Source of the DNA: Candidatus Bathyarchaeota archaeon
Lineage (GTDB): Archaea > Thermoproteota > Bathyarchaeia > 40CM-2-53-6
Reading direction: 5' to 3'
Length of the DNA stretch: 64,000 bases
NCBI GenBank assembly: GCA_963833125.1
Contig: CAWHWX010000001.1
Coordinates: forward strand, 1 to 64,000
The notes under the pieces are model-generated. The model searched no databases. It saw only the letters and a list, made by a program, of their open reading frames with translations, and was not told the origin of the DNA. The position numbers were made by a program, and so were the translations under genes. Below are positions 823 to 60,730 of the stretch, piece after piece (positions within the stretch are counted from its first letter, which is position 1; each line of letters begins with the position of its first letter).

Positions 823-1088
823 GATTCTTCAATGGCACAGGGGGGGTGTTATTTGGCCATCTATTCTGGAACGAATCCGGCTTCTCTACTCGAAGAATAC
901 GTGCTCCTCCCAAGTCTCCAACAATTAATACGGGTCTGCTTGGTCACGGTGCACGAGCTCATATGTACTGGTGAGTTGGTGTAAGAATTGCCTGCGTTAA
1001 AGACACGAAGTATCTTCGCTTGTGACTAAGTGAAGCTTGATATTATGTCCGCAAATGATGCTGAGTAGTGTTGTTTGGAAGGGTTCTT

Positions 1089-2193
1089 TTGAGAATCAAG
1101 AAAATCTCGGTATGGCGAGTAGATCTCCCCTTGCGAGAGGGAGCATACAAGTGGTCTGGGGGCAAATCTGTCACAGTATTTGATAGCACCATTGTTGGAG
1201 TTGAGACGGAAAGTGGCCCAATTGGCTACGGGGAAGTGTGCCCTCTTGGGCCATCCTATTTGCCGGCTTACTCAAATGGTGTTCGCGCGGGCATCAAGGA
1301 ATTGGGACCACACTTACTGGACGAAGATCCGTTAGAACTTACACGCCTCAACCTCCGCATGGACCATGAACTCAAAGGACATCCGTATGTTAAATCAGGG
1401 ATCGACATCGCTTGTTGGGACATTCTTGGCCAAACCACCGGCCAACCACTATGTGTGCTAATGGGGGGACGTTACGGCAAAGATTTCGGCCTCTACCGAG
1501 CCATCTCGCAGGAGTCTCCTCAAGAAATGGCTCGCAGCGTAGAAAACTACCGCGCGCAAGGCTATCGGCGCTTCCAGCTCAAAGTCGGCGGGGATCCAGA
1601 GATCGACATTGAACGCATCCGTGCAGCCTCAGCCAAGCTTCAGCCCGGTGACCGCCTCGTTGCCGACGCGAACACAGGTTGGTTGATGCATGACGCAGTC
1701 CGCGTCGTACGTGCGGTAAATGGTTTGGATGTGTATATCGAGCAACCATGTTTGACTTACGACGAATGCCTCTCCGTTCGCCGCCGCACTACCCACCCCT
1801 TCATTCTGGACGAAGTGATTGACAGCGTCGAGAGCATAGTGCGCGGGAAAGCCGATCTCGCTATGGATGTTGTGAACATCAAGATTAGTAAATTCGGCGG
1901 CCTGACGAAAGCGCGACAGGCGCGTGACTTGTGCGCGTCGCTAGGTATCGCTGTGACGATTGAAGATAGTTGGGGTGGCGATATCACGACCGCTGCTATT
2001 GCGCATCTGGCGCACAGTACACCACCAGATTTCTTGTTTACCACGACGGATTTCAACAGCTATGTCACCGTCGAGACAGTCGAAGGAGCACCACACCGCA
2101 GTCAATGGGCGAATGGCAGCGAGCACTCAACCAGGTCTTGGTATCAAACCGAAGATGGAAGTACTGGGCGAACCAGTAATGATCGTCGAATGA
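1089..2193 (+). CDS. Enolase superfamily (mandelate racemase/MLE), cis-3-hydroxy-L-proline dehydratase-like; one indel near 2095
   Basis: VDLPLREGAYKWSGG, LYRAISQE, FQLKVGG, DANTGW, IEQPC, LDEVID, NIKISKFGG, EDSWGGD and TDFNSY closely follow the recalled c3LHyp dehydratase subgroup. The true C-terminus (VNGRMAASTQPGLGIKP) is in the 1960..2193 frame. Confidence 0.8.
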
Positions 2194-2293
2194 GGCTAAC
2201 TTCCCGCACGATTAGACCGGGATACACTTCTTGAGACGACCGACTCTGCTAGGCACAAGATTTCATTAAGCAATCTCAGTCCAGGTATCGCCT

Positions 2294-3384
2294 ATGTCGC
2301 TCTCATTCACAAACCTCTTCGAACTTGAGAAACTAGCGATGGCGAAGATGCCTAAGGCCGTATTCGATTACATCGTAGGAGGCTCAGGTGATGAAGTGGC
2401 TCTTAGGCGAAACCGTGAGGCCTACAATCACTGGACTCTACGCCCGCACGTTCTGGTAGATGTGGGACAGCGAAACACTTCCACAACAGTTCTCGGTGAA
2501 CGAATATCAATGCCACTCCTCGTAGCGCCCACCGCTTTTCACGGCATGGTTCATCCGGAAGGTGAAATTGCATCGGCGCGGAACTGCGGAGGCTGGAACA
2601 ATATTCATAGCCAGTACCTTAGCGACGAGGTCCCTTGAAGAGATCGCACTCGGTAGAGCCCGCTCCGCGCTGGTTCCAGTTATATGTCTCCAAGGACCGC
2701 AACGCGACTGAGCGTCTAGTGCATAGGGCTGCGAAGGCAGGGTACCGGGCGATCTGCGTTACCGTCGATGCTCCAGTACTAGGTCGCCGCGAGCGGGATG
2801 AGAAGAACGCATTCACTCTTCCTCCGAATCTACGGATTCCTAATCTCGAATTAATCGGAATGGACCATATGGAACGGATTGGTGAGCCTGGTTCGGGTTT
2901 CGCTGCTCACTTCACTAAGATGATTGATCCGACACTGACTTGGAAGGATATTGACTGGCTTGGTTCTGTGAGCCCCTTGCCCTTGGTTCTAAAGGGAATC
3001 ATGACCGGTAAGGATGCGAAGCTTGCTGTTGCGCATAATGCAAAGGGAATAATCGTTTCTAACCATGGGGGGAGGCAGTTGGATGACACGGTTGGCACAT
3101 TGGATGCCTTGCCCGAGGTCGTTGAAGCTGTTCAAGGTAAAGTAGAGGTGTTAGTAGATGGCGGAATCCGTCGTGGAACCGACATCCTCAAGGCCATAGC
3201 GCTTGGAGCTCAAGCCGTCCTTTTGGGCCGACCGATCTTATGGGGATTGGCCCTTTCAGGCAGACAAGGAGTTAAGGCGGTTCTCGAACACTTGCGCATG
3301 GAACTCGATTCAGCAATGGCCCTAACTGGCCGAAGAACCATAGGCGAGATCGATCGAAGCCTTGTGCAACAAACGCTGAGTTAG
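2294..3384 (+). CDS. FMN-dependent alpha-hydroxy acid oxidase/dehydrogenase (lactate/glycolate oxidase family), split by indels
   Basis: FDYIVGGS, APTAFHG, WFQLY, TVDAP, SNHGGRQLD and DGGIRRGTD motifs spread across two ORFs. Confidence 0.9.
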
Positions 3385-6090: not shown

Positions 6091-7677
6091 CTACTCGGGG
6101 GGTATCATTCTGTGCATCTTATCGACTGGTATGCCTCTTGACTTCTGGATGGCGTAGGATACGAAATAGATGACTAACCCTATCACGAATAGCGCGGCAA
6201 CCACGGTGATGTACTGCGGGTTAAGTGGCCCTACTAAAGCCGGCAGCATAGAAGCATAGGCGATGAGTAGTCCCATCGGTATGCTGATAGCCCCCACGAT
6301 CACGATTATTGGAACTCCAGCTATCTTTCTAGTTGTGAGCGGCGGTGAGAGGCTAAAGACATCTCCGCGAACTCGTGGGAAGAGAACTCCGGCTACGCCC
6401 ACGATCGCCACACTGATGAAGGAACCCGTTATAACATAGGTGAAGAACGCGGCTATCGACGTGTAGACAGTTAAGTAGACAAACAACAAGTCGATGATAA
6501 TCACGGTCAAAGTCGCAATGTACGGCACATGATACCTCTCGTTGACTTCGCTGAATTTTCTGGGAATAACAGCATCGAAACTCCAAGCAAACAAACATCT
6601 TACCGACGTAAAACTAGCCGCGAGCATGTATCCGAACAACGTTGCAAGCAACCCTATACCCATGATCCATTCAACGACTGCGTTCTTGGTGCCATATCCG
6701 GCCAAGAATTGCAGTATCGGTAACCCTGTGGGAAGGGTGTACGCAGAATTCCCGTTCAAAGCAAGATACGCAATAGACGCCAAAAAGTCATGACCCATCG
6801 CCGAATAGGTTACGAGCGCTACAAAGAACATCAGAACGATGTATACGATCGGCGCCCCCAACATCGCAATCACCTGCGAGCGTTGCGGATTCTTCACTTC
6901 GCCCCCAGTGTAGACCGATGCGGTGAACCCCCACACGGCTAGTAGGGTGTAGACCACGCCGAGCATAGTGTCCGAAGCATTGTAGGTGAGGTTTGCTCCT
7001 GCGCTCTGCGCCGTAGATATGACCGTGTTATACTGTGTAGTTGAAAGTGAATTGAAGTTTGAAATGAACTGAGCTATCGGTGTGGTGCCAATTGCGAAAA
7101 GGTAAACCAGTACGGAAAAGGTGGTTATTACGAAAAAGAGGCCTTTGAGCTTGAAGGTCATGCCTGTCCCGAAGAATAATGCTATGGGCAGGATGACCGC
7201 GAAGATTGCCCCTATAATGAATTGACTGGAGGTTGTCGTTAGGCTAGTAGCCAAGGTGGCCAGTCCAGGATCTCCGTTTATGCCACTCAGAGCGTTGAGC
7301 ATGGGGCCTAACGCCATCGTACTGATCCATACTGCTTCGACGCCGATGACCGAGATGTTGATGATCGTTGCGACAAAATTGATCATGAACCCTACTGATG
7401 GATGAAGGATACGGCCTACGAAGACATAGTCGCCCCCGGACCGCGGAAAAGCCGCGGAAAACTGCGCGTAGATGTAGGCTACGAGGAGGGAGGGAATCAA
7501 AGCCAGCAGAGCTGAAATGGGAAGATAGGCTCCAGGAAAGAGCCCCTGGCCTATGACCAGAAAAATCAACATGAACGCTGGGCTAGTGAACATCAGGTTC
7601 AGTACGAAGGCTCTGTACGCTGAGATTTCTCGAACGAGTCCAGTCGCTTCTCTTTCGAAGACTTTGCCTTTTGACAA
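6091..7677 (-). CDS. APC superfamily amino acid permease
   Basis: 528 aa with about 12 hydrophobic segments; FEREATGLVREI, FPRSGGDYVF, GGEVKNP, FAWSFD and C-terminal IPPE. Confidence 0.9.
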   Translation of the reverse strand: MSKGKVFEREATGLVREISAYRAFVLNLMFTSPAFMLIFLVIGQGLFPGAYLPISALLALIPSLLVAYIYAQFSAAFPRSGGDYVFVGRILHPSVGFMINFVATIINISVIGVEAVWISTMALGPMLNALSGINGDPGLATLATSLTTTSSQFIIGAIFAVILPIALFFGTGMTFKLKGLFFVITTFSVLVYLFAIGTTPIAQFISNFNSLSTTQYNTVISTAQSAGANLTYNASDTMLGVVYTLLAVWGFTASVYTGGEVKNPQRSQVIAMLGAPIVYIVLMFFVALVTYSAMGHDFLASIAYLALNGNSAYTLPTGLPILQFLAGYGTKNAVVEWIMGIGLLATLFGYMLAASFTSVRCLFAWSFDAVIPRKFSEVNERYHVPYIATLTVIIIDLLFVYLTVYTSIAAFFTYVITGSFISVAIVGVAGVLFPRVRGDVFSLSPPLTTRKIAGVPIIVIVGAISIPMGLLIAYASMLPALVGPLNPQYITVVAALFVIGLVIYFVSYAIQKSRGIPVDKMHRMIPPE

Positions 7678-7830
7678 CGAAACTCAACGACTGCTGAATC
7701 CAGATAGATATAACATTTCGCATGATCCCTCCATTCTTTTCGTGGCCTTCGAGTATTTTTCGAACCTCTAACTGCAGGGGAGGGCAAGATTCATGAATGG
7801 TGCCCCTTTCAGCTCATTTTGGTTTGAGAT

Positions 7831-9150
7831 ATGTCGGAAAGCGAGGCTGGAGTGGATCAGAATGTCAGATACTTGGATTTGGTGGTCAAGAAGAACCCCA
7901 ACCTAGTTTTATTCGCTGCAGAACTTCATCAGCGAAACCTCATCCCCGTAGACACATTCGTTCTAGACCTCGACACACATGTCCACAACGCGAAAGCAAT
8001 GATTGCTGAGGCAAGAAAGTTTGGGATCAAACTGTATTACATGAGCAAGCAAATCAACCGTAATCCAATCGTTGCGCAGGCAGTGGTGAACACAGGGTTC
8101 AATGGTGTTGTCACGGTGGAGCCTCAGGAGATGCGTAGCCTAGTAAGGTACGGAGTCAAGATCGCACACGTGGGACACTTGGTTAACGTTCCAGAAGCTG
8201 AAATCGACTACGTTCTGAAGAATGCACGGCCTGAAGTGATCACAGTTTTCAATGAAGAAAAGGCGAAGATGATTTCGGACTGCGCTGCCCGCCTCGGGTT
8301 GAAGCAGAATCTGTTGATTCGCCCCATGAGTAGTCAGGATGTCCTCTATCCGTATATGGAGGGAGGAGTGCCCGAGAAGGGCGCGTTAGATCTCATCAAG
8401 AAAATAAATTCATTTCCGAACACGAAGGTGGAAGGCGTCACCAGCTTCCCTTGCATCCTCTACGATCTCAAAACAAACAAACCAGTATTCATGCCAAACA
8501 TGGACACTATCACCCGTACCGCCAATGAAGCACGAAACCACGGCATACCAATGCCACAGGTTAACGCACCACCCATGTGCATCACAAAGACCATTGAATT
8601 GTACGCCAAGAAAGGCGCGACCCACCTTGAACCTGGGTTGGGAATGACGGGCATGTCACCCTGGCAGCTCTATCAACCCGAACTGCATCCGGAGATTCAA
8701 GCAGGAGTATACGTCACAGAAGTTTCACACTTCTATGATCAATACGCCTACGTTTACGCGGGTGGGATGAATTACATAGAAATATTCGAAACTGCATACG
8801 ACGGGAAAAGCTTCGTAGCTGATCCTTTGAAGCTAAAGATGAAAGCGATGGTAGGACGAACTCCTGACCAGCTGATGAACAATCCTGTCGACGCTGAGCA
8901 TTATCACGGCATAATTGACTATCACGCTAGGCTCTACAAGAAACCATCAGTCAAAGTAGGAGACACGGTTGTATACGGATATCGAACCCAGATGTTCGTA
9001 AATCGGGCTCAGGTAGCAGTGGTTTCCGGACTAAGAGATAACAACCCGCGACTACTCGGATTATTTGATCACGCCAACAACCTCATCGATCGACACGGAC
9101 ACCTCCTCGGCGAACAAAAGACAATAGACTTGATTAAAGAAAACTCGTAG
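7831..9150 (+). CDS. YhfX-family PLP-dependent protein (alanine racemase-like TIM barrel)
   Basis: LYYMSKQINRNP (PLP Lys), HVGHLVNVP, PEVITVF, GVTSFPCILYD, QVNAP, THLEPG, VYVTEVSH, IDYH and RTQMFVNR are recalled as YhfX signatures. Confidence 0.8.
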   Translation: MSESEAGVDQNVRYLDLVVKKNPNLVLFAAELHQRNLIPVDTFVLDLDTHVHNAKAMIAEARKFGIKLYYMSKQINRNPIVAQAVVNTGFNGVVTVEPQEMRSLVRYGVKIAHVGHLVNVPEAEIDYVLKNARPEVITVFNEEKAKMISDCAARLGLKQNLLIRPMSSQDVLYPYMEGGVPEKGALDLIKKINSFPNTKVEGVTSFPCILYDLKTNKPVFMPNMDTITRTANEARNHGIPMPQVNAPPMCITKTIELYAKKGATHLEPGLGMTGMSPWQLYQPELHPEIQAGVYVTEVSHFYDQYAYVYAGGMNYIEIFETAYDGKSFVADPLKLKMKAMVGRTPDQLMNNPVDAEHYHGIIDYHARLYKKPSVKVGDTVVYGYRTQMFVNRAQVAVVSGLRDNNPRLLGLFDHANNLIDRHGHLLGEQKTIDLIKENS

Positions 9151-9206
9151 ATTCGACAGATACAATGTAAGGATTCTTCAAATGGCGTTGAACATTCGCA
9201 AATTTC

Positions 9207-9653
9207 GTGAGTCGAGACACGAAAGAAACATCAAAGATGCTACTGGATGCGTTCCAATGGTTCCACAAACGGAATAAACGCTCATGGTTATGGAAGTCCC
9301 TCCAACCCTCCAGCGTGATTGCTAACAGTAAGATTCAGGACATTCTCGTCGCAGAGAAAGCGAACAATATCGTTGGTTACATATCATCCACCACAACCCC
9401 CTTCCAAGTTGCTTACATTCCGATGGTGGCAGTTGCTTCACATATGCAGAATGCAGGAATCGGAACAGCCTTACTAAACAGAAAAATGAGGTACCTTCGC
9501 CGACAAAAGGTCCGCAAAGTCTGGTTGCTAGTCACGAACTCCAATGTTCGTGCAATAACATTCTACTTGAAACACAAGTTCGTGATTGAAGGATACTTAC
9601 GCGATCACACAGGACCAGGGTTGGACGAAGTACTCCTGAGCAGGTTCATGTGA
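9207..9653 (+). CDS. GNAT family N-acetyltransferase
   Basis: VAVASHMQNAGIGTALL (motif A) and NVRAITFYLKHKF (motif B). Confidence 0.85.
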   Translation: MSRDTKETSKMLLDAFQWFHKRNKRSWLWKSLQPSSVIANSKIQDILVAEKANNIVGYISSTTTPFQVAYIPMVAVASHMQNAGIGTALLNRKMRYLRRQKVRKVWLLVTNSNVRAITFYLKHKFVIEGYLRDHTGPGLDEVLLSRFM

Positions 9654-9674
9654 AATCATTAGGTGAGATTATCG

Positions 9675-10829
9675 ATGCGTGTAGTCGGATTCATGTCAGG
9701 CACGTCCCTAGACGGATTAAGCATAGCATACGTGGAAATCGACGGGGCAAAACCACCCTTTTCATCAAAATTCATCGCGGGCAGAACATTTCCACTACCT
9801 GCCAATTTACGAGTACCCCTCCTCAAGTTAGCTCAGTCCGGAACTGTCACGTCACAAACTGTGGCAAACTGCAATCGTGAGTTGGGTATCCTGGCCGCCG
9901 ATTCATTAGAAATTTTGCTACGAGATCAGTCTTTGCAGCCACCAGAGCTAATTGGCTTCCATGGACAGACAATCTACCACCAGCCAAGTACCGATGGAAC
10001 GACAACATTACAGATTGGCGATCCATCGCCTCTTTGCTCTAGGTTCAATGTTCCAGTCGTATCAGATTTCAGGAGCATGGACACAGCCGTAAATGGACAA
10101 GGGGGGCCACTCGTTTCGGTCGTTGACTACCTCAAGTATCGCTCCGATAATGAGACGCGAGTAATTCTGAACTTGGGCGGGATCTCGAATTTTACAGTAC
10201 TGCCGCGGGGCTGCGACTTGGCTGGCGTCTTAGGTTTTGATGTAGGTCCCGCAAGCATCCTGATCGACGCCGTTGTTGACCAACTCACCCACAGTAAGTC
10301 AAAGTATGACGCTGAAGGTGAAATGGCATCACGAGGAAGCGTCTCGAAAGGGCTGCTTGACTCAATCATGCAAGCCGACGATTATCGATACCTGCCGTAT
10401 CCGAAGACGACCGGCCGCGAAAGGTATGGGCTCAGTGTCGTGGAGAAAATTCTGAACAAAGCAAAGGGGTTGAACTTAGACCCAGATGACATTGTGGCGA
10501 CGACGGCGTACTATACTGTGTTCATGATTACGTATCATCTCAAGAAACTCAAAGACAGTGGACTGACCCTGGATGAGTTGATTATTGGTGGGGGCGGTTC
10601 AGGAAACAAATATCTTGTTCAAGAGTTAAAACGGAACAATCCGGAATTGATTGTTAAATTCCATTCCGATTATGGGGTACCTTCAAGCTACTGGGAAAGC
10701 TATGCTTTCGCCGTACTCTCGTATCTGGCGCATCTCGGTTTTTCAGGAAATGTACCATCCGTAACAGGAGCTTCGAGACCCGTCTTGCTGGGCCGCACCA
10801 ATTTTCCTGCTGAACACATCCTCTCCTAA
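9675..10829 (+). CDS. anmK: Anhydro-N-acetylmuramic acid kinase
   Basis: GFMSGTSLDG, IGFHGQTIYH, DFRSMD...GQGGPL, LNLGGISN, FDVGP, PKTTGRE, GGGG and ESYAFA...GNVPSVTGA are all diagnostic AnmK motifs. Confidence 0.95.
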   Translation: MRVVGFMSGTSLDGLSIAYVEIDGAKPPFSSKFIAGRTFPLPANLRVPLLKLAQSGTVTSQTVANCNRELGILAADSLEILLRDQSLQPPELIGFHGQTIYHQPSTDGTTTLQIGDPSPLCSRFNVPVVSDFRSMDTAVNGQGGPLVSVVDYLKYRSDNETRVILNLGGISNFTVLPRGCDLAGVLGFDVGPASILIDAVVDQLTHSKSKYDAEGEMASRGSVSKGLLDSIMQADDYRYLPYPKTTGRERYGLSVVEKILNKAKGLNLDPDDIVATTAYYTVFMITYHLKKLKDSGLTLDELIIGGGGSGNKYLVQELKRNNPELIVKFHSDYGVPSSYWESYAFAVLSYLAHLGFSGNVPSVTGASRPVLLGRTNFPAEHILS

Positions 10830-10862
10830 TCCACGCACCGTACCGAACTAAGCCTAACATGT

Positions 10863-11972
10863 CTAGGTTATGGCTGCGATAACTTCGTTATGGAAATCCT
10901 GTAAGACATTAGTCCATGACGTGCGTCGACGCATCATTATACCAACGGACGCGTCCGAGCCAGGAATTCCTTCTCGAACTGGATGAATTCTATTGGTTAA
11001 TAGAATTATGAAGGCGTTCCTGACCTTGTCCAGCCAAATGGACGTCCCCGTGTAGCCGTTATGCCCGTAAGATCGAGGAGAAAGCCTTGACCCGACCGCG
11101 GGTGTCAATCGGGTTTTCACTCGCCATCCAAGACCGTAATTGGATCCCATATCGCTCGTATGGTTCTTTACCATCAGTCGAATGGTTCCTTTGTCAAGAA
11201 TTCGCTTTCCGGCATAAGTTCCGCCGTTAAGCATCATCATACAGAATATCGCCAGATCACTTGCAGTTGAGAAGAGACCTGCATGCCCGCTGACGCCGCC
11301 CATTGCGGCAGCGTTCTCATCATGCACCTCGCCCCTAATCATCCTAAACCTCCAGTTCGAGAATTCTGTAGCAGCCATGTTTTCAGCGGGCTTTGGTAGA
11401 AATGATGTGTGTTTCATTCCGAGAGGTATGTAAATTTCGTCTAATGCAAATTGGTCTAATGATCGGTTACTCGCTTTCTGAACGATCTCGCCCAGAATAA
11501 TGTAGCCCAGGTCACTGTAAGTGGCCCGTGTTCCCGGCGCCGACTGTAGAGGTATACCATTACAAATACTCCTGAGAATGGACGTCCTGCTGGCTCGAGG
11601 ATTTTCGTATAACGGTGCCCAGGCTGGCAGACCTGATGTGTGACAGAGCAGGTGTCTGACTCGAACCCTTTTCTTGGAGCCTTTTGAGAAGGAGGGAAAC
11701 AGATCAACTACTCTGGTTTCCAATTCTAACCGATTCTGTTCGACCAGAATCATGATGGAAGTTGCTGTGGCGACGACTTTGGTTACTGAGGCTAGATCAA
11801 ATAGAGTGTCGAGTTTGATTTCTTCTCGCTCTGGCAATATGCTGCTATAGCCAACCGCCTTATTCATGACCATTGATCCGTTAAGTCCAACGCAGGCAAC
11901 TGCGCCAGCATACGCATTTTGTTGTGAGCCATTTTCTATGATTTTAAATGCCGAATCAAGTTTTGGTGACAT
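10863..11972 (-). CDS. Beta-lactamase/class C-like serine hydrolase, AmiE (MurNAc-L-Ala amidase)-like by context
   Basis: FDLASVTK (SxxK), LLCHTSG, YSDLGY, RGEVHDENA, GHAGLFS and GHNGYTG. Immediately downstream of murQ, as amiE/ybbE is in the Bacillus recycling operon. No signal peptide. Confidence 0.8.
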   Translation of the reverse strand: MSPKLDSAFKIIENGSQQNAYAGAVACVGLNGSMVMNKAVGYSSILPEREEIKLDTLFDLASVTKVVATATSIMILVEQNRLELETRVVDLFPSFSKGSKKRVRVRHLLCHTSGLPAWAPLYENPRASRTSILRSICNGIPLQSAPGTRATYSDLGYIILGEIVQKASNRSLDQFALDEIYIPLGMKHTSFLPKPAENMAATEFSNWRFRMIRGEVHDENAAAMGGVSGHAGLFSTASDLAIFCMMMLNGGTYAGKRILDKGTIRLMVKNHTSDMGSNYGLGWRVKTRLTPAVGSRLSPRSYGHNGYTGTSIWLDKVRNAFIILLTNRIHPVREGIPGSDASVGIMMRRRTSWTNVLQDFHNEVIAAIT

Positions 11973-11990
11973 CTGCGCTTGTCCTCATCC

Positions 11991-12929
11991 TTATGAGAAA
12001 CTTCTAGCGCGTTTGCCCAGTTCGAGAGCTTTCTCGAGCGACCCGTGCGCTGTTTTGAGGAGTTTCCGTGCTGCTTGATAGCCCAAGTTTTCCCTGGCCA
12101 TGAGTATTGCGACGCGAACGTCCACTCGGGCCTCTTTGAGCTTTCTGAAAGCCGCTTGAGATTTCAGGCCAGTTTCCGTCGCGACAATCCTTGTTGCTCT
12201 CTCTATCAGCTTCCTGTTTGTGGGTCTTAGTCCAACCATGAGGTTTCCGTGAACTCTACCAAGTCTCAACATCGCTACTGTGCTGACCATGTTGAGTACA
12301 AGCTTCTGAGCGGTTCCCGCTTTCATTCTTGTCGACCCAGACAAAACCTCAGGGCCCGTCCTCGGGCAGATTACGATATGAGCGTAACGGAAAACCGTTG
12401 AGTGCGGATTGGACGTGAGCGCAATCGCTTCCGCATTACGAGCCTTTGCAAACCTGAGCGCTGCCGTTACGAATGGGGTGTTGCCACTCGCTGAGATTCC
12501 TAAAACTACGTCCCTCGAACATAACCCCATCTTCTTGAGCTGATCTACAGCTGACCGTTGGTTATCCTCCGCACCTTCAATAGGCCGGAAGGCTGCTCTC
12601 TTTCCGCCCGCAATTATCGCTCGCACGATTTCTGGGCCAGCACCGAATGTTGGGATGAGTTCTGAAGCGTCCAAGACGCCCAGCCGCCCACTCGTACCCG
12701 CACCCACGTAAATCAATCTCCCACCTTCCTCCAGACGCTTGACAATCTGAACGATGACTTTCGCAATTACCGGAATCTCTCTTCGCACTGCGTCGGGAAC
12801 TTGCCTGTCTTCATCGTTAATGATTTTGAGAATTGATTCGATGGGCAGAGAGCTCAACCTGCGTGTTCTTGGGTTACTCTCTTCTGTTGCAATTCGACCC
12901 ATGCGGTTTTTCGAATATTCCATAATCAA
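11991..12929 (-). CDS. murQ: N-acetylmuramic acid 6-phosphate etherase
   Basis: TEESNP, YVGAGTSGRLGVLDASE, EGAED, GISASGNTP, GPEVLSGSTRMKAGTAQKLVLNMVST and GNLMV...TNRKL. Both catalytic Glu residues are present. Confidence 0.95.
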   Translation of the reverse strand: MIMEYSKNRMGRIATEESNPRTRRLSSLPIESILKIINDEDRQVPDAVRREIPVIAKVIVQIVKRLEEGGRLIYVGAGTSGRLGVLDASELIPTFGAGPEIVRAIIAGGKRAAFRPIEGAEDNQRSAVDQLKKMGLCSRDVVLGISASGNTPFVTAALRFAKARNAEAIALTSNPHSTVFRYAHIVICPRTGPEVLSGSTRMKAGTAQKLVLNMVSTVAMLRLGRVHGNLMVGLRPTNRKLIERATRIVATETGLKSQAAFRKLKEARVDVRVAILMARENLGYQAARKLLKTAHGSLEKALELGKRARSFS

Positions 12930-13060
12930 ACCGGACTTTCTCGCTGAAGACTTGCCTATTACCTTTGGACTAAGATATCAGTCGACCCGCGTGGGTCATT
13001 GGAAGACCATTCTCTTTAAACAGGTTCCCCTCGAATACATTTGCGCGTCTGGCAGCCTAC

Positions 13061-13995
13061 GTGACTTCGATGCTCAACGAGAAGATTCGGAGAATAATTA
13101 GAGAACTCGAGAAGGAAGGTATTCCTCCATATTACACAATGTCTGTCAGTGAAGCGCGACGTCTATCAAAGGATATGGGGAGGAGATTCGCATCTTCACC
13201 ACCGAATCTTGCGTTAGTCAGAGAACTCGTTGCGTCGACACCAAAAGCAAGAATCCTAGTGAGGGTCTACGTGCCGAGAGATCAAGTGGACCTCCCCGTG
13301 CTAATCTATTTTCACGGGGGCGGATGGGTTTTAGGAGATCTTGACACTTCGGATTGGCTTTGTTGCTCGATCGCACTTGCAGCCAACTGCGTGGTCTTCT
13401 CCGTCGATTACCGCCTGGCACCTGAAAATAAGTTTCCAACTCCGGTTGAAGACTGTTATTGGGCCGTGAAATGGATTACAGAGAATGGTATTGAGCGTTA
13501 CGCAGATCTAAGACGGGTAGCGGTTGGTGGCGACAGCGCCGGGGGCAACTTAGCCGCGGCTGTCTGTTTGATGGCGCGGGACCGCGGTCAACCGACCATT
13601 TCTTTCCAGTTACTTATCTGCCCGGTCATGAATCATTCCTTTGATACGGAGTCATACCGTAAGTACGCAGATGGGTACCTTCTCACGTTGAAGGATATGG
13701 AATGGTTCTGGAATCATTACTTAGCGGCTGAGAAAGACGGTCAGAACCCATATGCGTCTCCGCTACTCGGCGACCTCCGATCCTTGCCGCCTGCGCTAAT
13801 TATGACAGCTGAGTTTGACCCGTTGCGCGATGAAGGAGAAGCCTACCGGAGCGATTACGGCAAGCCGGCGTCGCCGTTAGAATGGCCCGATACGAATCTA
13901 TGATTCACACTTGGACCGACTTTTCTCATCTCGAACAGACCACGGCGGCAATAAGGGAAGCAGCAATGGCGCTTCGCAAGGCATTTGGAACTTAG
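13061..13995 (+). CDS. HSL-family alpha/beta hydrolase (acetyl esterase-like), indel near 13845
   Basis: HGGGW, GDSAGG and DPLRDEG. The catalytic His (MIHTW) is in the shifted frame. Confidence 0.9.
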
Positions 13996-14045
13996 ATCAT
14001 TAGATTAGTCGCTAGTCAAATGAATCCTAAAACCGCTTCACCAAT

Positions 14046-15206
14046 CTACGGATACGCTTGGATCCCTTGAACAAAAGTTGAAACGACGTTCAGATTTTTG
14101 TCTAAGAGCACGATATCAGCGTCCTTACCTTCAACTAGACTTCCAGTTCTAGCTCCCAGATCCAATTGTCTTGCAGCATTGAGCGATGTCATCCGTATGA
14201 CATCAGGAAGTTCGAGGTGTCCCCAAGATAGGAGGTTTCTCACCGCTCGATCCAAAGTCAGTAGGCTGCCACAAAGTCCACCATCCTCCGTGAAGGACCC
14301 ACCATCATGAACGTAGCCTTTAGTCCCACACAAATCGAACTCAGTCAATTGCGTCCCCGTGGGCATCACCGAATCTGAAACGAGAATTATCCCATCAGGC
14401 CCCTTTGCTCGGACCGCAAGAAGTGCGACGTACGGGTTAAGGTGAAGGCCATCGGCGATAATTTCAGCTTTCACATCATCGGAGACAAGAGCAGCCCCAA
14501 CAGCACCTGGCTCCCGGCCTTGAAGCCCGGACATTGCGTTGAACGTATGAGTGATGTGAGTTATTCCCGTGTCAATACCCTTCATTGCTTGTTGAAAGGA
14601 GGCATTCGTGTGACCCATTGCCGCAACAATTCCCAGACGGACGCATTCTCTACATAATTCCAACCCGTCCTTCAGTTCGGGTGCTATTGTGATAATTTTC
14701 ACGACAGGCTCGTAATCTTGCACTATCTCCTTGAACGCGTCGAGGGACGGGGTCTGAAGGTATTCCTCGCGATGCACCCCACGCTTAGAGGAATTCAGGA
14801 AAGGTCCTTCGAGGTTCGCGCCTGCAATTTTGGCCCCTGCACGAGGGTTTGTCATGGAGCCTTTCACGGCTTGTAGAAAACTTCTGATTTGCTGGGTGGG
14901 CATGCTAACGGATGTTGGTAAGAATGTGGTGATGCCAAACCGGACAAGCGCCTTCCCCATTTGAATGATGGATTCCACATCGCCGCGAGTTGCGTCGTAA
15001 CCACCTGTGCCGTGAATATGAATGTCAATGAAACCGGGTGACACGTAGTTGTCAGTCGCATCAATCTGGGTTATGCCCGCGGGAATCGCTGATAGGGAAT
15101 CCGTAATTCTCTCAATCTTCCCAGACTTGACGAGGACATTACCTCGAAGAATTGTTGCCGATTCACCGATCAACGTGCCGTTTACGATGGCAAAATCAGC
15201 GGTCAA
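14046..15206 (-). CDS. nagA: N-acetylglucosamine-6-phosphate deacetylase
   Basis: PGFIDIHIHG, FLPT, NLEGPF, TIAPE, MGHTNA, THTFNAM, IADGLH, LVSDS and GGLCGS. Confidence 0.93.
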   Translation of the reverse strand: MTADFAIVNGTLIGESATILRGNVLVKSGKIERITDSLSAIPAGITQIDATDNYVSPGFIDIHIHGTGGYDATRGDVESIIQMGKALVRFGITTFLPTSVSMPTQQIRSFLQAVKGSMTNPRAGAKIAGANLEGPFLNSSKRGVHREEYLQTPSLDAFKEIVQDYEPVVKIITIAPELKDGLELCRECVRLGIVAAMGHTNASFQQAMKGIDTGITHITHTFNAMSGLQGREPGAVGAALVSDDVKAEIIADGLHLNPYVALLAVRAKGPDGIILVSDSVMPTGTQLTEFDLCGTKGYVHDGGSFTEDGGLCGSLLTLDRAVRNLLSWGHLELPDVIRMTSLNAARQLDLGARTGSLVEGKDADIVLLDKNLNVVSTFVQGIQAYP

Positions 15207-17116: not shown

Positions 17117-18089
17117 CTATTTCTTAGGATTCACTGGATTCGGCAACGGTTCGCCTTTCAAGCCCGCAATGAGGTTCTCCGCGGCCATCATCCCCATCTT
17201 CGTTCTGGTCGTGACTGATGCGCTCGCAATGTGCGGCGCAATAACAATATTCTCCAATTTCAGCAGTGGGTGGTCGATGGGTATTGGTTCGGGTTCTGTA
17301 ACATCCAATCCAGCGTACGCGATCTTTCCGTCGCGAAGCGCCTCGTATAATGCCATGTTATCAACGATTGGGACCACGAGAGGTGTTGATGAGAATACAG
17401 GTTCGTTTCATCTTCTTGAATTGTTCGGGGCCGATTAGGTGGTGAGTTTCAGGAGTCAGATTCGTATGCAGCGTGATGAAGTCTGATTCAGCCAAGAGTT
17501 TTCCCATCTCCACGTACTCTAACCCTAACTCTTTCTCAGTTTGCGGCTGCTGCCTGATCACGTCGGAGTACATGATCTTCATTCCGAAGCCTTTCGCACG
17601 CCTTGCCACCGCCACACCGATCCTTCCCATACCAACTATTCCAAGAGTTGAACCAAACACATCTTGGCCAAGTAGAATCATCGGCCCCCACGTCTTCCAC
17701 TTGCCCGCACGCACGTTTCTGTCTCCTTCAGCGACACGTCGAGCCGCAGCCAACATTAACGCGAATGCGAAATCCGCAGTTGTTTCCGTCAAAACTCCAG
17801 GCGTGTTTCCAACCGCTATACCTCGTTTGGTGGCGGCGTCGACGTCTATGTTATCAAAGCCGACTGCGATGTTGCTGATCACTTTCAGCTTTGGTGCCTT
17901 GTCCATAAGCGGTGCGTCTATCTTATCGGTGAGCAGACAAAGCAGCCCCTCCACGTTGGCAATGTTCTCAATTATGGTGTCTCTGGGAGGAGGCAATTCT
18001 CCCTCCCATACCTTGGCATCACAATAGGAGTAGATTCGATCCATCGCAGGTTTCGGCAACAACCTCGTAACGTAAACTTTCGGCTTCAA
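17117..18089 (-). CDS. D-2-hydroxyacid dehydrogenase (glyoxylate reductase/D-glycerate dehydrogenase type), indel near 17370
   Basis: [44 protein letters not shown] and APHIAS. Confidence 0.9.
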
Positions 18090-20578: not shown

Positions 20579-21628
20579 GTGAAATTCATGCCAACATATG
20601 CTGAAAGCAAGTGGAGGGAACTCGGGGTTCAAATGGTAGAGGCTTCGGGAGTTTCTTCGGAAGACGCGCGAACAATCACAGATGTCCTAGTTTCAGGCAG
20701 CCTGAGAGGAATTGATTCTCATGGCGTCCGAGTTCTGCCTCGCTTCACGGAGAAGAGACGCAAAGCGGAGATGAAAGTGCTGAAAGAGATGCCGGCAACC
20801 GCACTGCTTGATGCCGGCGGTGCGTGGGGTCCCGTTTCAGCTAAGAAGGCTATGGAAATCGCAATCGAGAAGGCCAGAAAGATGGGAACTGCCTCCTGTA
20901 GCATTGTCAACGGCGAATGGATCACCAACCTCTTCTATTACTCAATGATGGCGCAGGAAAATGACATGATCGGAATTGCATTAGCTCGTGAAGGCCCAGT
21001 TTGTGCGCCTTGGGGAGGTACTAAACCGGTGACCGGTACGAATCCGATGAGCATCGCGATCCCCGCTGGAAAGCGGTTCCCAATAGTTTCGGATTTCGCT
21101 ACTACAATAGTTGCTGTGGGACATGTGAAGTCACTCCTCTTGGAAGGTAAACCAATACCTCAAGACTGGCTGATCGACAGACAAGGAAACGCGCTGAAAC
21201 CAGGTGACCTTACTATGCAAAATATCGATGCAACATTAGAGAAGCCATCATCACCATTCGCGCTTCTCCCCTTCGGCACGTACAAAGGCTACGGAATCAA
21301 CGTGGCCATCGACGTGCTTGGAGGGGCATTGAATCTGTCGGGCACTGGATCCAGGGCAAAGGGACAAGGAGCACTGATGACAGCCATCAACGTGGAAGCT
21401 TTCGTGCCCGTCAAAGACTTCAAAGACGAAGTCGACCGACTAATCGAAGAAATCAAATCATCACCAACGAGACCCGGCTTCCAGGAAGTCCTTCTTCCAG
21501 GAGAAAGAGAACATAAGACGATGAACCAGAGGAAGAAAGAGGGGATACCCATAGACGAGAAATCCTGGAAGGACATTGTTGATACCTGTATGAAATTAGG
21601 CATAGACGCAACGAAGATGATGAGCTAA
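20579..21628 (+). CDS. Ldh_2 family oxidoreductase (type 2 malate/lactate DH; DpkA/ComC/AllD clan)
   Basis: LRGIDSHG, GTNPMSIAIP, DFATT, LLPFGTYKGYG and LLPGERE. Confidence 0.88.
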   Translation: MKFMPTYAESKWRELGVQMVEASGVSSEDARTITDVLVSGSLRGIDSHGVRVLPRFTEKRRKAEMKVLKEMPATALLDAGGAWGPVSAKKAMEIAIEKARKMGTASCSIVNGEWITNLFYYSMMAQENDMIGIALAREGPVCAPWGGTKPVTGTNPMSIAIPAGKRFPIVSDFATTIVAVGHVKSLLLEGKPIPQDWLIDRQGNALKPGDLTMQNIDATLEKPSSPFALLPFGTYKGYGINVAIDVLGGALNLSGTGSRAKGQGALMTAINVEAFVPVKDFKDEVDRLIEEIKSSPTRPGFQEVLLPGEREHKTMNQRKKEGIPIDEKSWKDIVDTCMKLGIDATKMMS

Positions 21629-21776
21629 GATCTCAAACGACTTCCGAAATCCTGTTTCCACGCGCGGTGTTGAGCCGTCTAGGCAGAGTCGAAAAATGAT
21701 TGTTTTCTTTTATCGATTTGTAGGATTAGGGTTAATAAATCGCCGAACTTCACGCCGTCACTGCCGGCTAAATCAG

Positions 21777-23112
21777 ATGCAACTTACGGGACCGAAGATA
21801 ATCGTTGAGCCGCCTGGACCCAAGGCGAAGGAAATTATCAAGCGCGATGAAAAATTAACCTCTCCTTCCCTGACTAGAACAGCGCCACTTGTGGGCGTTA
21901 GGTCTGAAGGGGTTTGGGTTGAGGATATTGATGGGAATGTTTACTTGGATTTCGGATCTGGAATTGCGGTCTCAAATGTTGGTCATTCTCACAAGAAGGT
22001 TGTTGAAGCTATCAAGAAACAGGCGGATACGTGCGATCACATCAATAGCTGTGACTACTTTACCGTTCCCCAAGTCGAATATGCTGAAAAACTCCTGGCG
22101 AGGATGCCTGGTAACTTCACGAAGCGAGTTTTCTTCGGAAATAGTGGGGCTGAAGCGGTGGAGTGCGCGATTAAGATTGCAAAATGGCATTCCAAGAAGC
22201 CGTACCTGATCTGTTTCATTGGCGGGTTTCACGGACGAACGATGGGTGCTCTATCTCTAACAAGCACTTCTGCTGCTGCCAGAAAATTCTTCTTTCCGAT
22301 GATGCCTGGCGCCACGCACGTTCCCTACGCATACTGCTATCGATGCGTGTACGGACAGAGTTACCCGGATTGTGGAATGTGGTGCCTAAACTATATCGAG
22401 GAGGTAGTATTCAAGAAACTTGTTTCGCCTGACGAGGTTGCAGGGCTCATTGTAGAACCAATCCAAGGCGCGGGGGGTTACATCGTCCCGCCAAAGGAAT
22501 TTCTCCCAGGCCTAAGGAGAATATGCGAACAAGAACGGAATAATCATGATCGCGGACGAAGTCCAGACGGGGTTTGGTAGGACCGGCAAAATGCTTGCTT
22601 GTGAGCACTGGAATGTGATTCCAGATATCATATTGATGTCCAAAGCCATGGCAGGCGGACTCCCCATGAGCGCATGTATCTCAAGAGCCGAACTAATGGA
22701 CTGGGACCCTTCGGCCCACGAAAACACTTTGGGCGGGAACCCGATCGTCGTAGCTGCCGCGCTCGCTGTGCTCGATGTCCTTACAGAAGAGCGGCTGATC
22801 GAAAACGCGGAGAAGGTTGGAGCCTACATGCTCAAGAGATTTACCGAGATTATGGATGAATGCAACCTAGTTGGGGACGTACGAGGGAAGGGCATGATGG
22901 TAGGCGTTGAACTCGTAAAGGACAGAGAGACGAAGGAATACGCAACCAAGGAAAGAGACGACCTCATCCTCAGGACGTTCAAGAAAGGACTTCTAATTTT
23001 GGGAGCAGGACCATCTAGTGTTCGTCTTGCACCACCATTGATCACGACCACAGACCAAGCAGAAACTGGCATCCAAATATTCGAAAAAGAACTGAAGGCA
23101 GTCGCAAAGTAA
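21777..23112 (+). CDS. Class III PLP aminotransferase (GABA/acetylornithine-AT-like), indel near 22535
   Basis: PPGPKA, LDFGSGIAV, NSGAEAVE, GFHGRTMG, EPIQGAGG, DEVQTGFGRTG, SKAMAGG and TLGGNP. Confidence 0.9.
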
Positions 23113-33506: not shown

Positions 33507-34572
33507 TTATTTACTATGCAATTTCCGGGCGGGCATTCTTATTTCTTCAATCGAACGGTTTTGTATTTTCTTGGATTGTTTATCGAGTTTCAGAGGCGGT
33601 GCGTTTTCTTGTAGAGCCTTCACTGCCTGTATGAATGTCTTGATACTGTCTGTAGGTGTTGATGAAGGTAAATTGCACCCAAAGCTTGCAACTAAGTTTT
33701 CAGTTCCACCTCCGGCCGTTAGCATCTGTGTGACGTTTGTCCGAATCGTTTCAGGTTTCTCAACTGACAGATTAGTCGGAGAATAATTTCCAAAAACCAA
33801 CACATCACTTGGCACTGCTTTAATGGCGTCAGAGAGTGAGACGGTCTGGTCGATACTAATCGCCGCCACGCCCGTTTCACCCATTTGTTTAAGGAGATGG
33901 TTCACGCGCCCACAAATGTGTAAGATGATGTCTGTGGAAACTGCCTCCGCCACAAGACTTAGTGGGGTTTTGGCGAACTGCTCAAAGTGGCGCGGCGAAA
34001 TCAGGCTCGACGACATGTCTGCCATCACAAGAAAATCCACCCCCGAGTCTCCTAGGCGTTTAGCATAATCAACCACAGTTTCGGTGCAGTCCGCAATCAA
34101 TTTCGAAATTACAGCTTCGGAGCGTAGAAGCCCTAGCAACAATTGCTGAACGCCAAGAATCTGGCTAACTAACGTAAATGGGCCTGTCACAAAGAAACCT
34201 GTGGGAACATCCTTCACTTGCTGTGAAATCTGCTTTGCCGCCTCGACCATCGATGACATTCTGTCGGTGCGCATCTGATGCAGTGATGCTGTGACGCTGT
34301 CGAGGGGCACATACGTCCTGATCTCCGGCGGGTCATAGTCGCTGAATAAGGGATTGAGACCGTATGACTCAGCTTCAACTGTTAGGTCCATGAGAGAGAT
34401 AACCGCATCAGGTTCGAATTGTCGAAGATTACTCCGAACTAGTTCAGCGTGAAGCCTAGGGTCATGGAGGCATTGCTGCGCAGTTAACCCTCCCGTTTTG
34501 AGGCCCGCGATACCCCAAGATTGGAACAACGCCGAACCGATCTAACGAGCTGAAATAATCACGCAGCGTCAT
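33507..34572 (-). CDS. Uroporphyrinogen decarboxylase-family methylcorrinoid methyltransferase (MT2, MtaA/CmuA-like), indel near the 5' end
   Basis: DLTVEAESYG, GPFTL, SLISP, LHICG (Zn ligands H-x-C), SIDQ, FGNYSP and FGCNLP. The true start MTLRDYF is at 34572. Confidence 0.8.
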
Positions 34573-34590: not shown

Positions 34591-36004
34591 TCAGATATTC
34601 AGCCCATATTCCTCTGGGACAAACGTTTGGCCCCAATTTTTCTTGATCTCCGGCTCTAACTCTTCGGGGGTTTCAGGCATTGATGCAAGCGCCTTCTCAA
34701 TTCGAGCCAACCATTTGCTTTCTGCAGCACTTGTCGAAAGCAAATTCTTGTTGGTGGCATCTCGCATTGTGCTGCATGCGGAATTGGCCGCCTTCAAAGT
34801 TCGTGCGTAGTCGTCCGATTCACTCACTATAGCCTTAGCTAATGGGAAGCAGATGTCCGGGTCGAGAAAGAGAGCTTGTGGATCCCTATAATGGTCGGAT
34901 TCAATTAGCAGATTCCGAAGAATTTTCGACTGCCGAAGATCGTGCGCGGTGTTCATGAGGCGACAGTCGTAGATAAGCATCTCAGTGCACACCTCGGGCG
35001 CCTGGCCCCCTAACAGCCTGACATTCTGGACCGACTCATTGGTCCAAAGGTCACAGACCGCGGACGCAATATTCCCCAAAGGTGAAGAATGCGCGCAGGC
35101 AGCAGACTTTCCCTCCATAGCAATCGGTACTCCTGCAATGATTTTCATTACGGGGTTCTCGTAACCGCAATCCTCCCCGGGACCAACAGCTCCTTCCTCA
35201 AACGCACATAACGTCCTCACGGCCGACACTGCTCGCACAAACGCCGCCAACACACGTGGGATGTAGTTCTGATGTGCGAGCTGCATGGCAGTGTTGGCGA
35301 ACACGCAGGCTGAGTCTCCACCGCCTAAAATGTTGTGTCTCGTGGTAATGTCGGTGACGTGACGCCAAAGATATCTCATGTCGCTGCAGGCGAGAACGCC
35401 TAGACTGTAAAGAATCGCAGTCACGTCCCCGCGCATTATGGCCTTGTCGAAAAGTTCCTTACCCCCAGTGCTCTCGATAGATAGAATATCGGCGCCTGAT
35501 GCGGCGCACTTTTCCATTGACTCCATAATCTTCTTGAAGCCTTCCCCCGTCCGCATTCTGGGTGGCCGCTCTGCTTCCCTCACATCGGCCACCGTAACTC
35601 GAAGCGCTGACATCAAACCATGCTTCCTGTGCGCTTCTTCGATAATCGATTTCATCTGCCGTGTAATTTCTGCGCCCCACTCCGGATGAGTTGTCAATTC
35701 GTAAAGGTGCTCAAACTCCAAAGCTAATGCAGGACAACCCAGCTGCGTTGCCTTCGCTAGTACCCCTTTTGACATCTCTTGGTACTGATGTTGGACCTCG
35801 TTCCAAGTAGAGGGTCCAATTGACATTGTAGGCAGCGTGAAGTCAACTTCAGGTAAAACCGTCCCTCCACCTATGGTCAACCCAAACCCTGCGCTGGACT
35901 GGGTTTGGAGCCACACCGAAGATGATGTCGTCCGGGGAGTCATATGACAAGCTACGGAAGCGTCGCTTAGGCTCTCGCGACTCCTTAGCCGCCGGAACTT
36001 GCAA
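34591..36004 (-). CDS. mtaB: Methanol:corrinoid methyltransferase MtaB (acetogen-type), indel near 35897
   Basis: FRSLSYDSPDDIIFG, IGGGTVLPEVDFTLP, PEWGAEI, GADILSIESTGGKE, GGDSACVFANTA, DCGYE, EGKSAACAHSS..GNI, WTNESVQNVRLL and DPQA. The Zn ligands Glu/Cys/Cys are present. Confidence 0.92.
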
Positions 36005-36273
36005 ATCGCATCGAGTCTCAAATCCAACCCGGTCACTAATAGCAAGCGCGTATGCAACCTACTTTTGCCAACAAGTTAACCAGCCTGCGCACTCCGACTG
36101 TCTCGATCATGGGCTACTTATCTAACGACAACTTTGAGATGAGCAGCAATGGATTTGCAGAATCCCCATTATGTAATGGTGGCATATTGCAGAAGTCGAG
36201 AGCATAGTCAGTGGACGTTGTGGTCGAAAATGACCATGCGGGCTATCCAGCACAAAGCTTCGACTGCTTTTTC

Positions 36274-57035: not shown

Positions 57036-57043
57036 AATCGTTG

Positions 57044-58155: not shown

Positions 58156-58160
58156 AACAA

Positions 58161-60724: not shown

Positions 60725-60730
60725 GAATAG

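Follow-up and report, generated by a model that had tools for sequence, protein, structure and literature searches.

The first 64 kb of the 409,701-bp contig C1 of a Bathyarchaeia genome (G000), hereafter the window, carry a cluster of eight genes (positions 6091-15206; Table 1) that includes anmK, murQ and nagA. Our results suggest that this chromosomal cluster is probably the core of the bacterial catabolic route for N-acetylmuramic acid (MurNAc) and its 1,6-anhydro form (anhMurNAc), which the archaeon would use to scavenge murein from outside. The pathway is a known, textbook bacterial one; what is new is the wall-less archaeal host and a gene architecture of its own. A first-pass annotation of the window had listed the eight open reading frames (ORFs) and proposed a murein-scavenging system. 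All eight were found at the coordinates that it gave, and the proposal is supported by the equivalog-level matches of MurQ and NagA, by the failure to find murein synthesis in the host, and by the archaeal identity of that host.

AnmK, MurQ and NagA

At the family level, the three enzymes would act in the order AnmK, MurQ, NagA, and would convert anhMurNAc to glucosamine-6-phosphate (GlcN-6P), D-lactate and acetate. MurQ scored above the cut-offs of three NCBIfam equivalog models (TIGR00274, 319.7 vs 302 bits; NF003915, 382.8 vs 168; NF009222, 369.7 vs 255), and it aligns without gaps to E. coli MurQ, at 45% identity. Moreover, it has a glutamate at both positions aligned with Glu83 and Glu114 of the E. 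coli enzyme, which we take to be the catalytic glutamates. NagA also passed its equivalog cut-off (TIGR00221, 342.4 vs 225.65 bits), over profile positions 2 to 379 of 380, and carries the motif DIHIHG.

AnmK is a member of the Pfam family PF03702, which it matched over profile positions 1 to 363 of 367 with a score above the cut-off of 24 bits. Its MSGTSLDG and FDVGP stretches align with the same stretches of PDB 3cqy, and both positions are invariant in the AnmK alignment; we take the phosphate-binding motif near the N-terminus and the Asp within FDxGPGN to be functional sites. The protein is closer to AnmK (195, 187 and 187 bits against the PDB chains) than to levoglucosan kinase (159, 156 and 156 bits). 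Its family is therefore that of AnmK, which turns anhMurNAc into MurNAc-6-phosphate (MurNAc-6P), and from the context we infer that anhMurNAc is also the substrate here. The three genes are intact and complete in these motifs, just as they had been described in the first-pass annotation.

Host identity and chromosomal location

The host is an archaeon of the class Bathyarchaeia. Its bin consists of 39 contigs and 3.07 Mb, with an estimated completeness of 87.8% and an estimated contamination of 7%. The small subunit (SSU) rRNA gene scored 1424.5 bits with the archaeal Rfam model, compared to 1045.7 with the bacterial one. Three TFIIB genes are present, found by a search that was otherwise positive only in the 4 archaeal control genomes. 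The genome also has an MCM gene, whose seven organism-named relatives are 87-92% identical to it, six of them labelled 'Candidatus Bathyarchaeia archaeon'. Finally, ARAGORN found 31 tRNAs when introns were allowed and 7 when they were not. The SSU, TFIIB and MCM genes and the intron-bearing tRNAs all agree with the 'apparently archaeal' host proposed initially, and a bacterial host was not borne out. Note that one MCM relative (P0248, 89% identical) carries the label 'Candidatus Saccharimonadales bacterium'; it is probably a mis-binned archaeal contig.

The window itself holds metabolic genes only, with no archaeal hallmark gene and no tRNA, so the linkage of the cluster to an archaeal chromosome needed other proof. 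A congener, G016 (3 contigs, 96% complete), whose 16S gene is 98.5% identical to that of G000, has all eight genes, identically ordered, with 84-95% amino acid identity. They form a 9,231-bp block of 86.1% nucleotide identity (G016:C1:437334-446481), and the contig of 1,572,808 bp on which it lies includes an archaeal 16S gene (at 1523096-1524647). G000:C1 is collinear with G016:C1 over approximately its first 230 kb, and over its last 40 kb or so in inverted order. For 24 other collinear blocks the nucleotide identity is 76-87%, a range that includes the value of this block. The tetranucleotide profile of the cluster corresponds to the 62nd percentile of 320 genome windows, relative to a genome mean that included C1. 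Thus the comparison of synteny across genomes that the first-pass annotation had recommended revealed an eight-gene collinear block on a 16S-bearing contig. Together with the collinearity of the flanks and the typical composition, this speaks against the chimeric assembly that it had considered.

Murein synthesis in the host

Family searches of the host genome found no transpeptidase domain of penicillin-binding proteins (PBPs; PF00905) and no Mur-ligase domain (PF08245). Across the genus, neither family was found in any of 23 genomes, of which three are 100% complete; bacterial controls were positive for both. The MurG model gave only 58.7 bits in the host, against a cut-off of 250; archaeal controls also match this model, none of them above the cut-off. 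These results sustain the initial view of a host without murein of its own, and the bacterium with mur biosynthesis genes that had been named as the alternative was not found. Since the host makes no murein, the substrate would have to come from outside, as muropeptides or as free MurNAc or anhMurNAc of living or dead bacteria.

The serine hydrolase encoded next to murQ

The first-pass annotation had described a cytoplasmic SxxK serine hydrolase directly behind murQ, and this description holds: the gene lies 18 bp from murQ, and its product has the SxxK motif as SVTK and no signal stretch. The protein is 37% identical to E. coli YfeW (PBP4B). Its SVTK, YSD and HNGYTG align with SNTK, YSD and HTGWTG of YfeW, so the motifs of the serine beta-lactamase fold are all present. 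It aligns to positions 53 to 397 of 432 of the PBP4B profile, and to YfeW from residue 96 on; roughly 50 positions of the profile and roughly 95 YfeW residues have no counterpart. Because the catalytic domain starts at about residue 10, there is no N-terminal signal stretch. Known PBP4B/AmiE-type members act outside the cytoplasm, and the archaeal protein does not have the export signal of these amidases. It is a candidate cytoplasmic MurNAc-peptide amidase, a role like that of AmiE.

The hydrolase gene and murQ keep the same order in G016 and in L176, a 1.7-kb metagenome fragment with the order anmK, pbp4b, murQ and 78-84% identity. L176 comes from a metagenome scan in which, among the matches listed, the 79 other contigs were distant (27-35% identity). 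As occurs here, murQ is linked to a PBP4B-family gene in the E. coli operon murQ-murP-yfeW. Homologues of the hydrolase are present in Thermoprotei, Methanomethylicota and Bathyarchaeota B24 (45-49% identity), and in Bacillota (43-50%). For six homologues the longest contig is equal in length to that of a clade-A AnmK match (see below; 1572808, 7260, 24329, 215426, 2699 and 11707 bp), and we therefore read the hydrolase and clade-A AnmK genes as lying on the same contig. Moreover, one homologue (P0347) is fused to NamZ and another (P0377) to a GH3 C-terminal domain. The linkage and the fusions support a candidate role of the hydrolase in muropeptide processing.

Selection and distribution

Seven genes of the block (perm, yhfX, gnat, anmK, pbp4b, murQ and nagA) are kept by purifying selection in the archaeal lineage. 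Between G000 and G016, their synonymous divergence (dS) is 0.41-0.57, and the ratio of nonsynonymous to synonymous divergence (dN/dS) is 0.05-0.21 (Nei-Gojobori).

Clusters of the window type occur in 2 of the 23 genomes of the genus, G000 and G016. In a third species, G002 (L257:10045-10560; G002:C7:52046-52556), there are two fragments approximately 100 bp apart. One corresponds to amino acids 429-528 of the permease (the last 100 codons; 86% amino acid identity) and the other, inverted relative to the window, to amino acids 4-42 of the esterase (72%). The rest of the cluster is not there, and the fragments look like the scar of a loss in this species. At the level of the order, any AnmK was found in 7 of 105 genomes; the five besides G000 and G016 have proteins only 33-45% identical to that of the window. 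The window-type hydrolase, searched at E ≤ 1e-50, was found in the same two genomes among 301 of the class, and in 0 of 299 others.

The trait is not peculiar to this genome, and related gene sets are widespread in Thermoproteota. In the class, AnmK occurs in 42 of the 301 sampled Bathyarchaeia and MurQ also in 42, and a comparison of the two lists gives 36 genomes with both. One family dominates (AnmK in 34 and MurQ in 36 of its 71 genomes), and in another each protein is found in 4 of 7. Twenty loci of the class were fetched. In 14 of them a BadF/BadG (MurK-like) kinase, MurQ, NamZ (PF07075, 278 bits), NagA and AnmK are encoded on the same strand, in most cases with an M20 peptidase gene behind them. 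Two loci are broken off by the contig end after murQ; two, from one genus, have added GH20 and PIG-L genes; and two hold only murQ and anmK, a pair that one further locus of that family also shows. An XPD-type helicase gene adjoins the operon in both class loci that were annotated with Pfam. In 6 of the 20 loci, murQ and namZ are separated by a conserved ORF of 332 amino acids that matches no Pfam family (e.g. L139:6615-7613, G214:C48).

Outside the class, AnmK homologues (31-40% identity) were found in 33 of 400 other Thermoproteota genomes. Seven loci from these other classes were compared. One links genes for a MurK-like kinase, MurQ, NamZ, a PBP4B-like protein and AnmK; another links those for AnmK, NamZ, MurQ and a MurK-like kinase; and two have AnmK and a PBP4B-like gene, adjacent in one and approximately 7 kb apart in the other. 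In a set of 22 archaeal loci that were compared, anmK is linked to murQ in every one.

Phylogeny of AnmK and MurQ

A careful IQ-TREE search (LG+G4) was run on 90 AnmK rows, of which 27 are known to be archaeal and 34 known to be bacterial, the other 29 having neither assignment. AnmK of the window falls in a clade (A; support 100/100) with G016, one 'Thermoprotei archaeon' protein and 27 metagenome proteins, so that taxonomy is known for 3 of its 30 rows. Relatives of clade A were also sought in genome contigs, where the scan returned at least 80 loci, bacterial among the matches listed. A second clade (B; support 81/99) unites the remaining Thermoproteota rows, 24 known to be archaeal and 1 other. 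The backbone between A, B, Bacillota, Acidobacteriota and the other rows is without resolution, and an approximately unbiased (AU) test did not reject A and B as a single clade (p 0.863). For both reasons, the tree is compatible with one or with several entries of AnmK into archaea. A quick tree had placed Clostridia between A and B, as if there had been two independent bacterial donors; after the careful tree and the AU test we do not claim this.

The MurQ tree has 37 rows, 23 archaeal and 14 bacterial, the latter taken from loci that had been fetched for another purpose. A branch with support 91/96 has all 23 archaeal rows on the same side, and MurQ of the G000-G016 pair groups (support 96/93) with MurQ from two further classes of the phylum. 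This grouping suggests that the block reached the genus from another archaeon; with only 14 bacterial rows, the tree is suggestive and not decisive. Thus, clades of archaeal rows, which the first-pass annotation had advised looking for, are seen with both enzymes, within the limit that applies to the taxonomy of clade A.

Proposed route and alternative explanations

In the route that we propose, the APC-type permease would import MurNAc, anhMurNAc or their peptides, as its adjacency suggests, and the signal-less PBP4B/AmiE-like hydrolase would strip the stem peptide in the cytoplasm. AnmK, assigned by family and with its substrate taken from context, would open the 1,6-anhydro ring and phosphorylate the sugar to MurNAc-6P. 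MurQ would convert this to N-acetylglucosamine-6-phosphate (GlcNAc-6P) and D-lactate, and NagA would convert GlcNAc-6P to GlcN-6P and acetate, two steps for which the matches are at equivalog level. GlcN-6P could then enter glycolysis as fructose-6-phosphate, via a candidate GlmS-C-like SIS deaminase encoded elsewhere in the genome, or be used for UDP-GlcNAc synthesis. On contig C16, a BadF/BadG-type kinase that is 36-38% identical to the MurK-like kinase of other Bathyarchaeia adjoins GlmS-C-terminal-like double-SIS proteins. The block was probably gained by an ancestor that two or perhaps three species of the genus share; the MurQ tree suggests an archaeal source and not a directly bacterial one. 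Purifying selection has kept it since.

Several results weigh against this proposal. AnmK fell under the cut-offs of all 14 NCBIfam equivalog models (best NF007148, 346.9 vs 387 bits), so its sequence does not settle its substrate. For the hydrolase, the best NCBIfam model, PBP4B (NF002968), has a cut-off of 385 bits and gave 207.9, and among solved structures the closest to the protein are carboxylesterases, so that it is no more than a candidate amidase. In the 88%-complete host genome, family searches did not find GH3 (NagZ), NamZ or PF01182 (classical NagB), tblastn found neither PIG-L nor GH20, the latter a gap in the route, and no AmpG- or MurP-type importer was identified. The sole candidates for a GlcN-6P deaminase, the SIS proteins of C16, scored 143 bits with NagB-II (cut-off 430) and 111 with GlmD (cut-off 580), and lie beside PfkB kinases, like fructosamine genes. 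For the permease, over 30 paralogues are encoded in the genome at 25-42% identity, and C1 itself holds several (e.g. C1:108269-109853 and C1:276421-278046, and on another contig C4:245497-247089), which makes its adjacency weak evidence for its substrate. The cluster is missing from 20 of 22 congeners, with fragments only in the third species, and is therefore dispensable. Finally, a frameshift in the esterase gene removes the C-terminal part, including the histidine of MIHTW, from the frame.

The first-pass annotation had seen no NagZ, NagB or sugar transporter in the window. For NagZ and classical NagB this gap extends to the whole genome searched, and for the transporter the APC permease is a candidate. 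The parts that would complete a bacterial murein recycling route, NagZ or NamZ, AmpG or MurP, NagB and murein made by the cell itself, were not found; the gene set would therefore work like the catabolic half only, on material from outside.

The failure of AnmK to reach any NCBIfam AnmK cut-off also bears on a different explanation, in which the enzymes act on other substrates and the wall is not food: the kinase would take levoglucosan or some other 1,6-anhydrosugar, while the substrates of etherase and deacetylase would be different sugar phosphates. AnmK still reached 156-159 bits against the levoglucosan kinase structures, and no NagZ or NamZ that would free MurNAc from disaccharides was found in the genome. 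We consider this unlikely, because MurQ and NagA pass their equivalog cut-offs, AnmK scores higher against AnmK than against levoglucosan kinase, and anmK is linked to murQ in all 22 archaeal loci compared, and in the wider class also to NamZ, an exo-muramidase family. The cluster could instead be a decaying relic of horizontal transfer that serves no pathway, as would fit the frameshifted esterase, the permease tail and esterase head that are all G002 retains, the 20 of 22 congeners without the cluster and the lack of a detectable downstream NagB. Yet seven genes are intact in two species at a dS of 0.4-0.57, with dN/dS of 0.05-0.21, and other genes of the assembly are split too, so the esterase frameshift may be an assembly error; we find a relic improbable, slightly more so than a change of substrate.

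That the genes serve the turnover of a MurNAc-like (lactyl-ether) sugar of the archaeon's own making deserves little credence. Nothing direct speaks for it, and the idea leans on the long residence of such genes in Thermoproteota; no Mur ligase, PBP or MurG-level match was found in the genus, and a cluster present in 2 of 23 genomes fits poorly with a structural cell component. Contamination of the bin by a bacterial contig, or a chimeric assembly, is very unlikely and the least credible of the four. The estimated 7% contamination and the lack of a hallmark gene or tRNA in the window would allow it, but in an independent genome the same block shares a 1.57-Mb contig with an archaeal 16S gene, G000:C1 (410 kb) and G016:C1 are collinear over long stretches, the composition of the cluster is typical of the genome, and the same chimera would be needed in both assemblies. 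Catabolism of murein from outside, by the core of the bacterial route, is thus the explanation that we prefer.

Relation to known systems and implications

E. coli (murR / murQ-murP-yfeW, with anmK and nagA elsewhere) shares with the cluster the chemistry of AnmK, MurQ and NagA and the linkage of murQ to a PBP4B-family hydrolase. Unlike E. coli, the archaeon has no murein to recycle and no phosphotransferase system (MurP), MurR or AmpG; its hydrolase is without the N-terminal signal region of YfeW; and its anmK and nagA are in the same block, to which APC permease, YhfX-like, GNAT and esterase genes are added. In B. subtilis, AmiE, a beta-lactamase-fold enzyme encoded by murQ's side, cleaves MurNAc-L-Ala, and both AmiE and NagZ are extracellular. 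The genes reportedly form a muropeptide rescue operon, murQ-murR-murP-amiE-nagZ (Litzinger et al. 2010). A beta-lactamase-fold hydrolase beside murQ is common to both organisms, and AmiE could serve as a model for the proposed role of the archaeal hydrolase, which differs in having no signal peptide and no NagZ found with it.

A parallel in archaeal hosts is the operon of MurK-like kinase, MurQ, NamZ, NagA and AnmK of other Bathyarchaeia and Thermoproteota, which has the same three core enzymes and a MurQ that groups with that of the window. Unlike the cluster of the window, this operon encodes NamZ, the BadF/BadG-type kinase and the M20 peptidase, with GH20 and PIG-L added in one genus. Between the two, AnmK shares only 34-41% identity and falls in separate clades, and outside G000 and G016 no close PBP4B-like gene was found at E ≤ 1e-50 in the class sample.

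Excerpts of a study of anaerobic ciliates describe laterally acquired pbp4b, NamZ, anmK, murQ and nagB genes, which its authors read as serving the digestion of bacterial peptidoglycan (PMC13198582). As excerpted, that case resembles ours in a wall-less recipient with the same gene set, and differs in that the ciliates are eukaryotes that ingest bacteria by phagocytosis (PMC13198582), whereas the archaeon must import fragments across its membrane. In excerpts of another report, highly expressed 'cell wall-associated hydrolases' of Bathyarchaeota were speculated to recycle bacterial biomass; these are described there as being without the peptidoglycan-targeting NlpC/P60 domain (PMC5264521). Our full-text literature searches found no description of AnmK, MurQ or NamZ catabolism in archaea, although supplementary tables of Bathyarchaeia metabolic reconstructions may list such KEGG functions. 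Archaeal proteins of this kind already carry the label 'anhydro-N-acetylmuramic acid kinase' from public pipelines. Thus the system, presented initially as the strongest candidate for an undescribed one, is undescribed in the literature searched, but its gene sets are widespread in Thermoproteota and already annotated automatically in public databases.

Bathyarchaeia are among the most abundant archaea of anoxic sediments. Peptidoglycan makes up a large, persistent share of microbial necromass, and the diet of Bathyarchaeia has so far been argued mostly from peptidase and carbohydrate genes. The cluster represents a defined, conserved and selectively maintained muramic-acid route in organisms that cannot be recycling a wall of their own, and with it the idea of archaea eating bacterial walls becomes directly testable. 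Tentatively, Thermoproteota, including Bathyarchaeia, could hold old, archaea-specific AnmK and MurQ lineages and operons, and be dedicated consumers of bacterial wall sugars and an unrecognised necromass sink in anoxic sediments and soils. The two architectures of the gene set within one archaeal phylum, together with the ciliate parallel as far as the excerpts present it (PMC13198582), suggest repeated recruitment by wall-less organisms.

Other genes of the block and its surroundings

Table 1. The eight genes at positions 6091-15206 of the window, with profile scores and the dN/dS between G000 and G016
Product	Position	Strand	Profile match	dN/dS
APC-superfamily permease, candidate importer	6091-7677	-	PF13520 70.4 bits; PF00324 60.8 bits	0.064
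YhfX-like fold-type-III pyridoxal phosphate (PLP) enzyme	7831-9150	+	PF21279 73.2 bits; PF01168 (Ala_racemase_N) 44.6 bits	0.050
GNAT N-acetyltransferase	9207-9653	+	PF00583 58.1 bits	0.117
AnmK-family kinase	9663-10829	+	PF03702 302.5 bits	0.142
SxxK serine hydrolase, PBP4B/AmiE kind	10863-11972	-	PF00144 215 bits	0.168
MurQ, MurNAc-6-phosphate etherase	11991-12929	-	TIGR00274 319.7 bits	0.211
HSL-type esterase, frameshifted	13061-13903, remainder in other frame to ~13995	+	PF07859 240.1 bits	
NagA, GlcNAc-6-phosphate deacetylase	14046-15206	-	TIGR00221 342.4 bits	0.150

The permease has 95% amino acid identity to its G016 counterpart, and the many paralogues mentioned above represent an unusual expansion of one transporter family in G000. 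The gene divergent from it had been called racemase-like. The Ala_racemase_N match agrees with this; more exactly, the product is YhfX-like, as indicated by PF21279 and by 212 bits against PDB 4kbx (E. coli YhfX), while the profile search gave no NCBIfam match. This enzyme may process D-amino acids. For the GNAT, whose gene ends 9 bp upstream of anmK, all NCBIfam models remained under their cut-offs.

The esterase gene is present, as annotated initially, but is not intact: relative to the intact G016 orthologue it has a 1-bp deletion near 13847, after which the ORF stops at 13903. The LipP1 model gave 342 bits against a cut-off of 350. Other genes of the assembly are also split or truncated. 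A class-III aminotransferase is divided over two overlapping ORFs (window 21696-23112), an FMN dehydrogenase lacks about 107 N-terminal profile positions and a 2-hydroxyacid dehydrogenase its C-terminus (window 2635-3384 and 17361-18089), and MCM of G000:C16 (L128:1789-3348) has 519 amino acids compared to 680 in its relatives. Together with the esterase frameshift, these genes suggest indel errors in the assembly, or real decay.

In the intergenic regions, no firm archaeal TATA-like promoter element was seen by eye. The sequence TTTTCGAA, present in two of these regions, was rejected as a shared operator, since its 5 matches compare with 4.1 expected and 33 of 100 shuffles reach 5.

Around the cluster, modules that combine a permease with enzymes for unusual amino acids form a patchwork, which fits a scavenger of detrital small molecules. 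The enolase-superfamily gene at 1068-2234 (+), considered as the L-Ala-D/L-Glu epimerase of murein peptides, encodes instead a cis-3-hydroxy-L-proline dehydratase (543 bits vs a cut-off of 500) and was rejected as a member of the murein system. With an Ldh_2-family dehydrogenase nearby (20579-21628, +), it may form a hydroxyproline catabolic module. In G016, approximately 18 kb that are not in G000 lie between nagA and a thrC-like gene (L091:6481-20000; G016:C1:446481-460000). They encode two D-serine-dehydratase-like PLP enzymes, a PhzF protein, an APC permease, a 543-aa amidohydrolase, an isochorismatase, a 3-hydroxyacyl-CoA dehydrogenase and an EamA transporter, and may be a D-amino-acid module.

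Further into the window, an MtaB-family methanol:cobalamin methyltransferase gene (PF12176, 518 bits; 34591-36057, -) adjoins that of a URO-D-like (MtaA-type) protein (33507-34529, -), a pair that would be a methyl-transfer module in a Bathyarchaeia genome. Finally, a purine-degradation region may be marked by two genes resembling adenine deaminases, together with two subunit sets of molybdoenzymes of the xanthine-dehydrogenase type (39077-40924, -; 44075-45871, +; 56972-63998, +).

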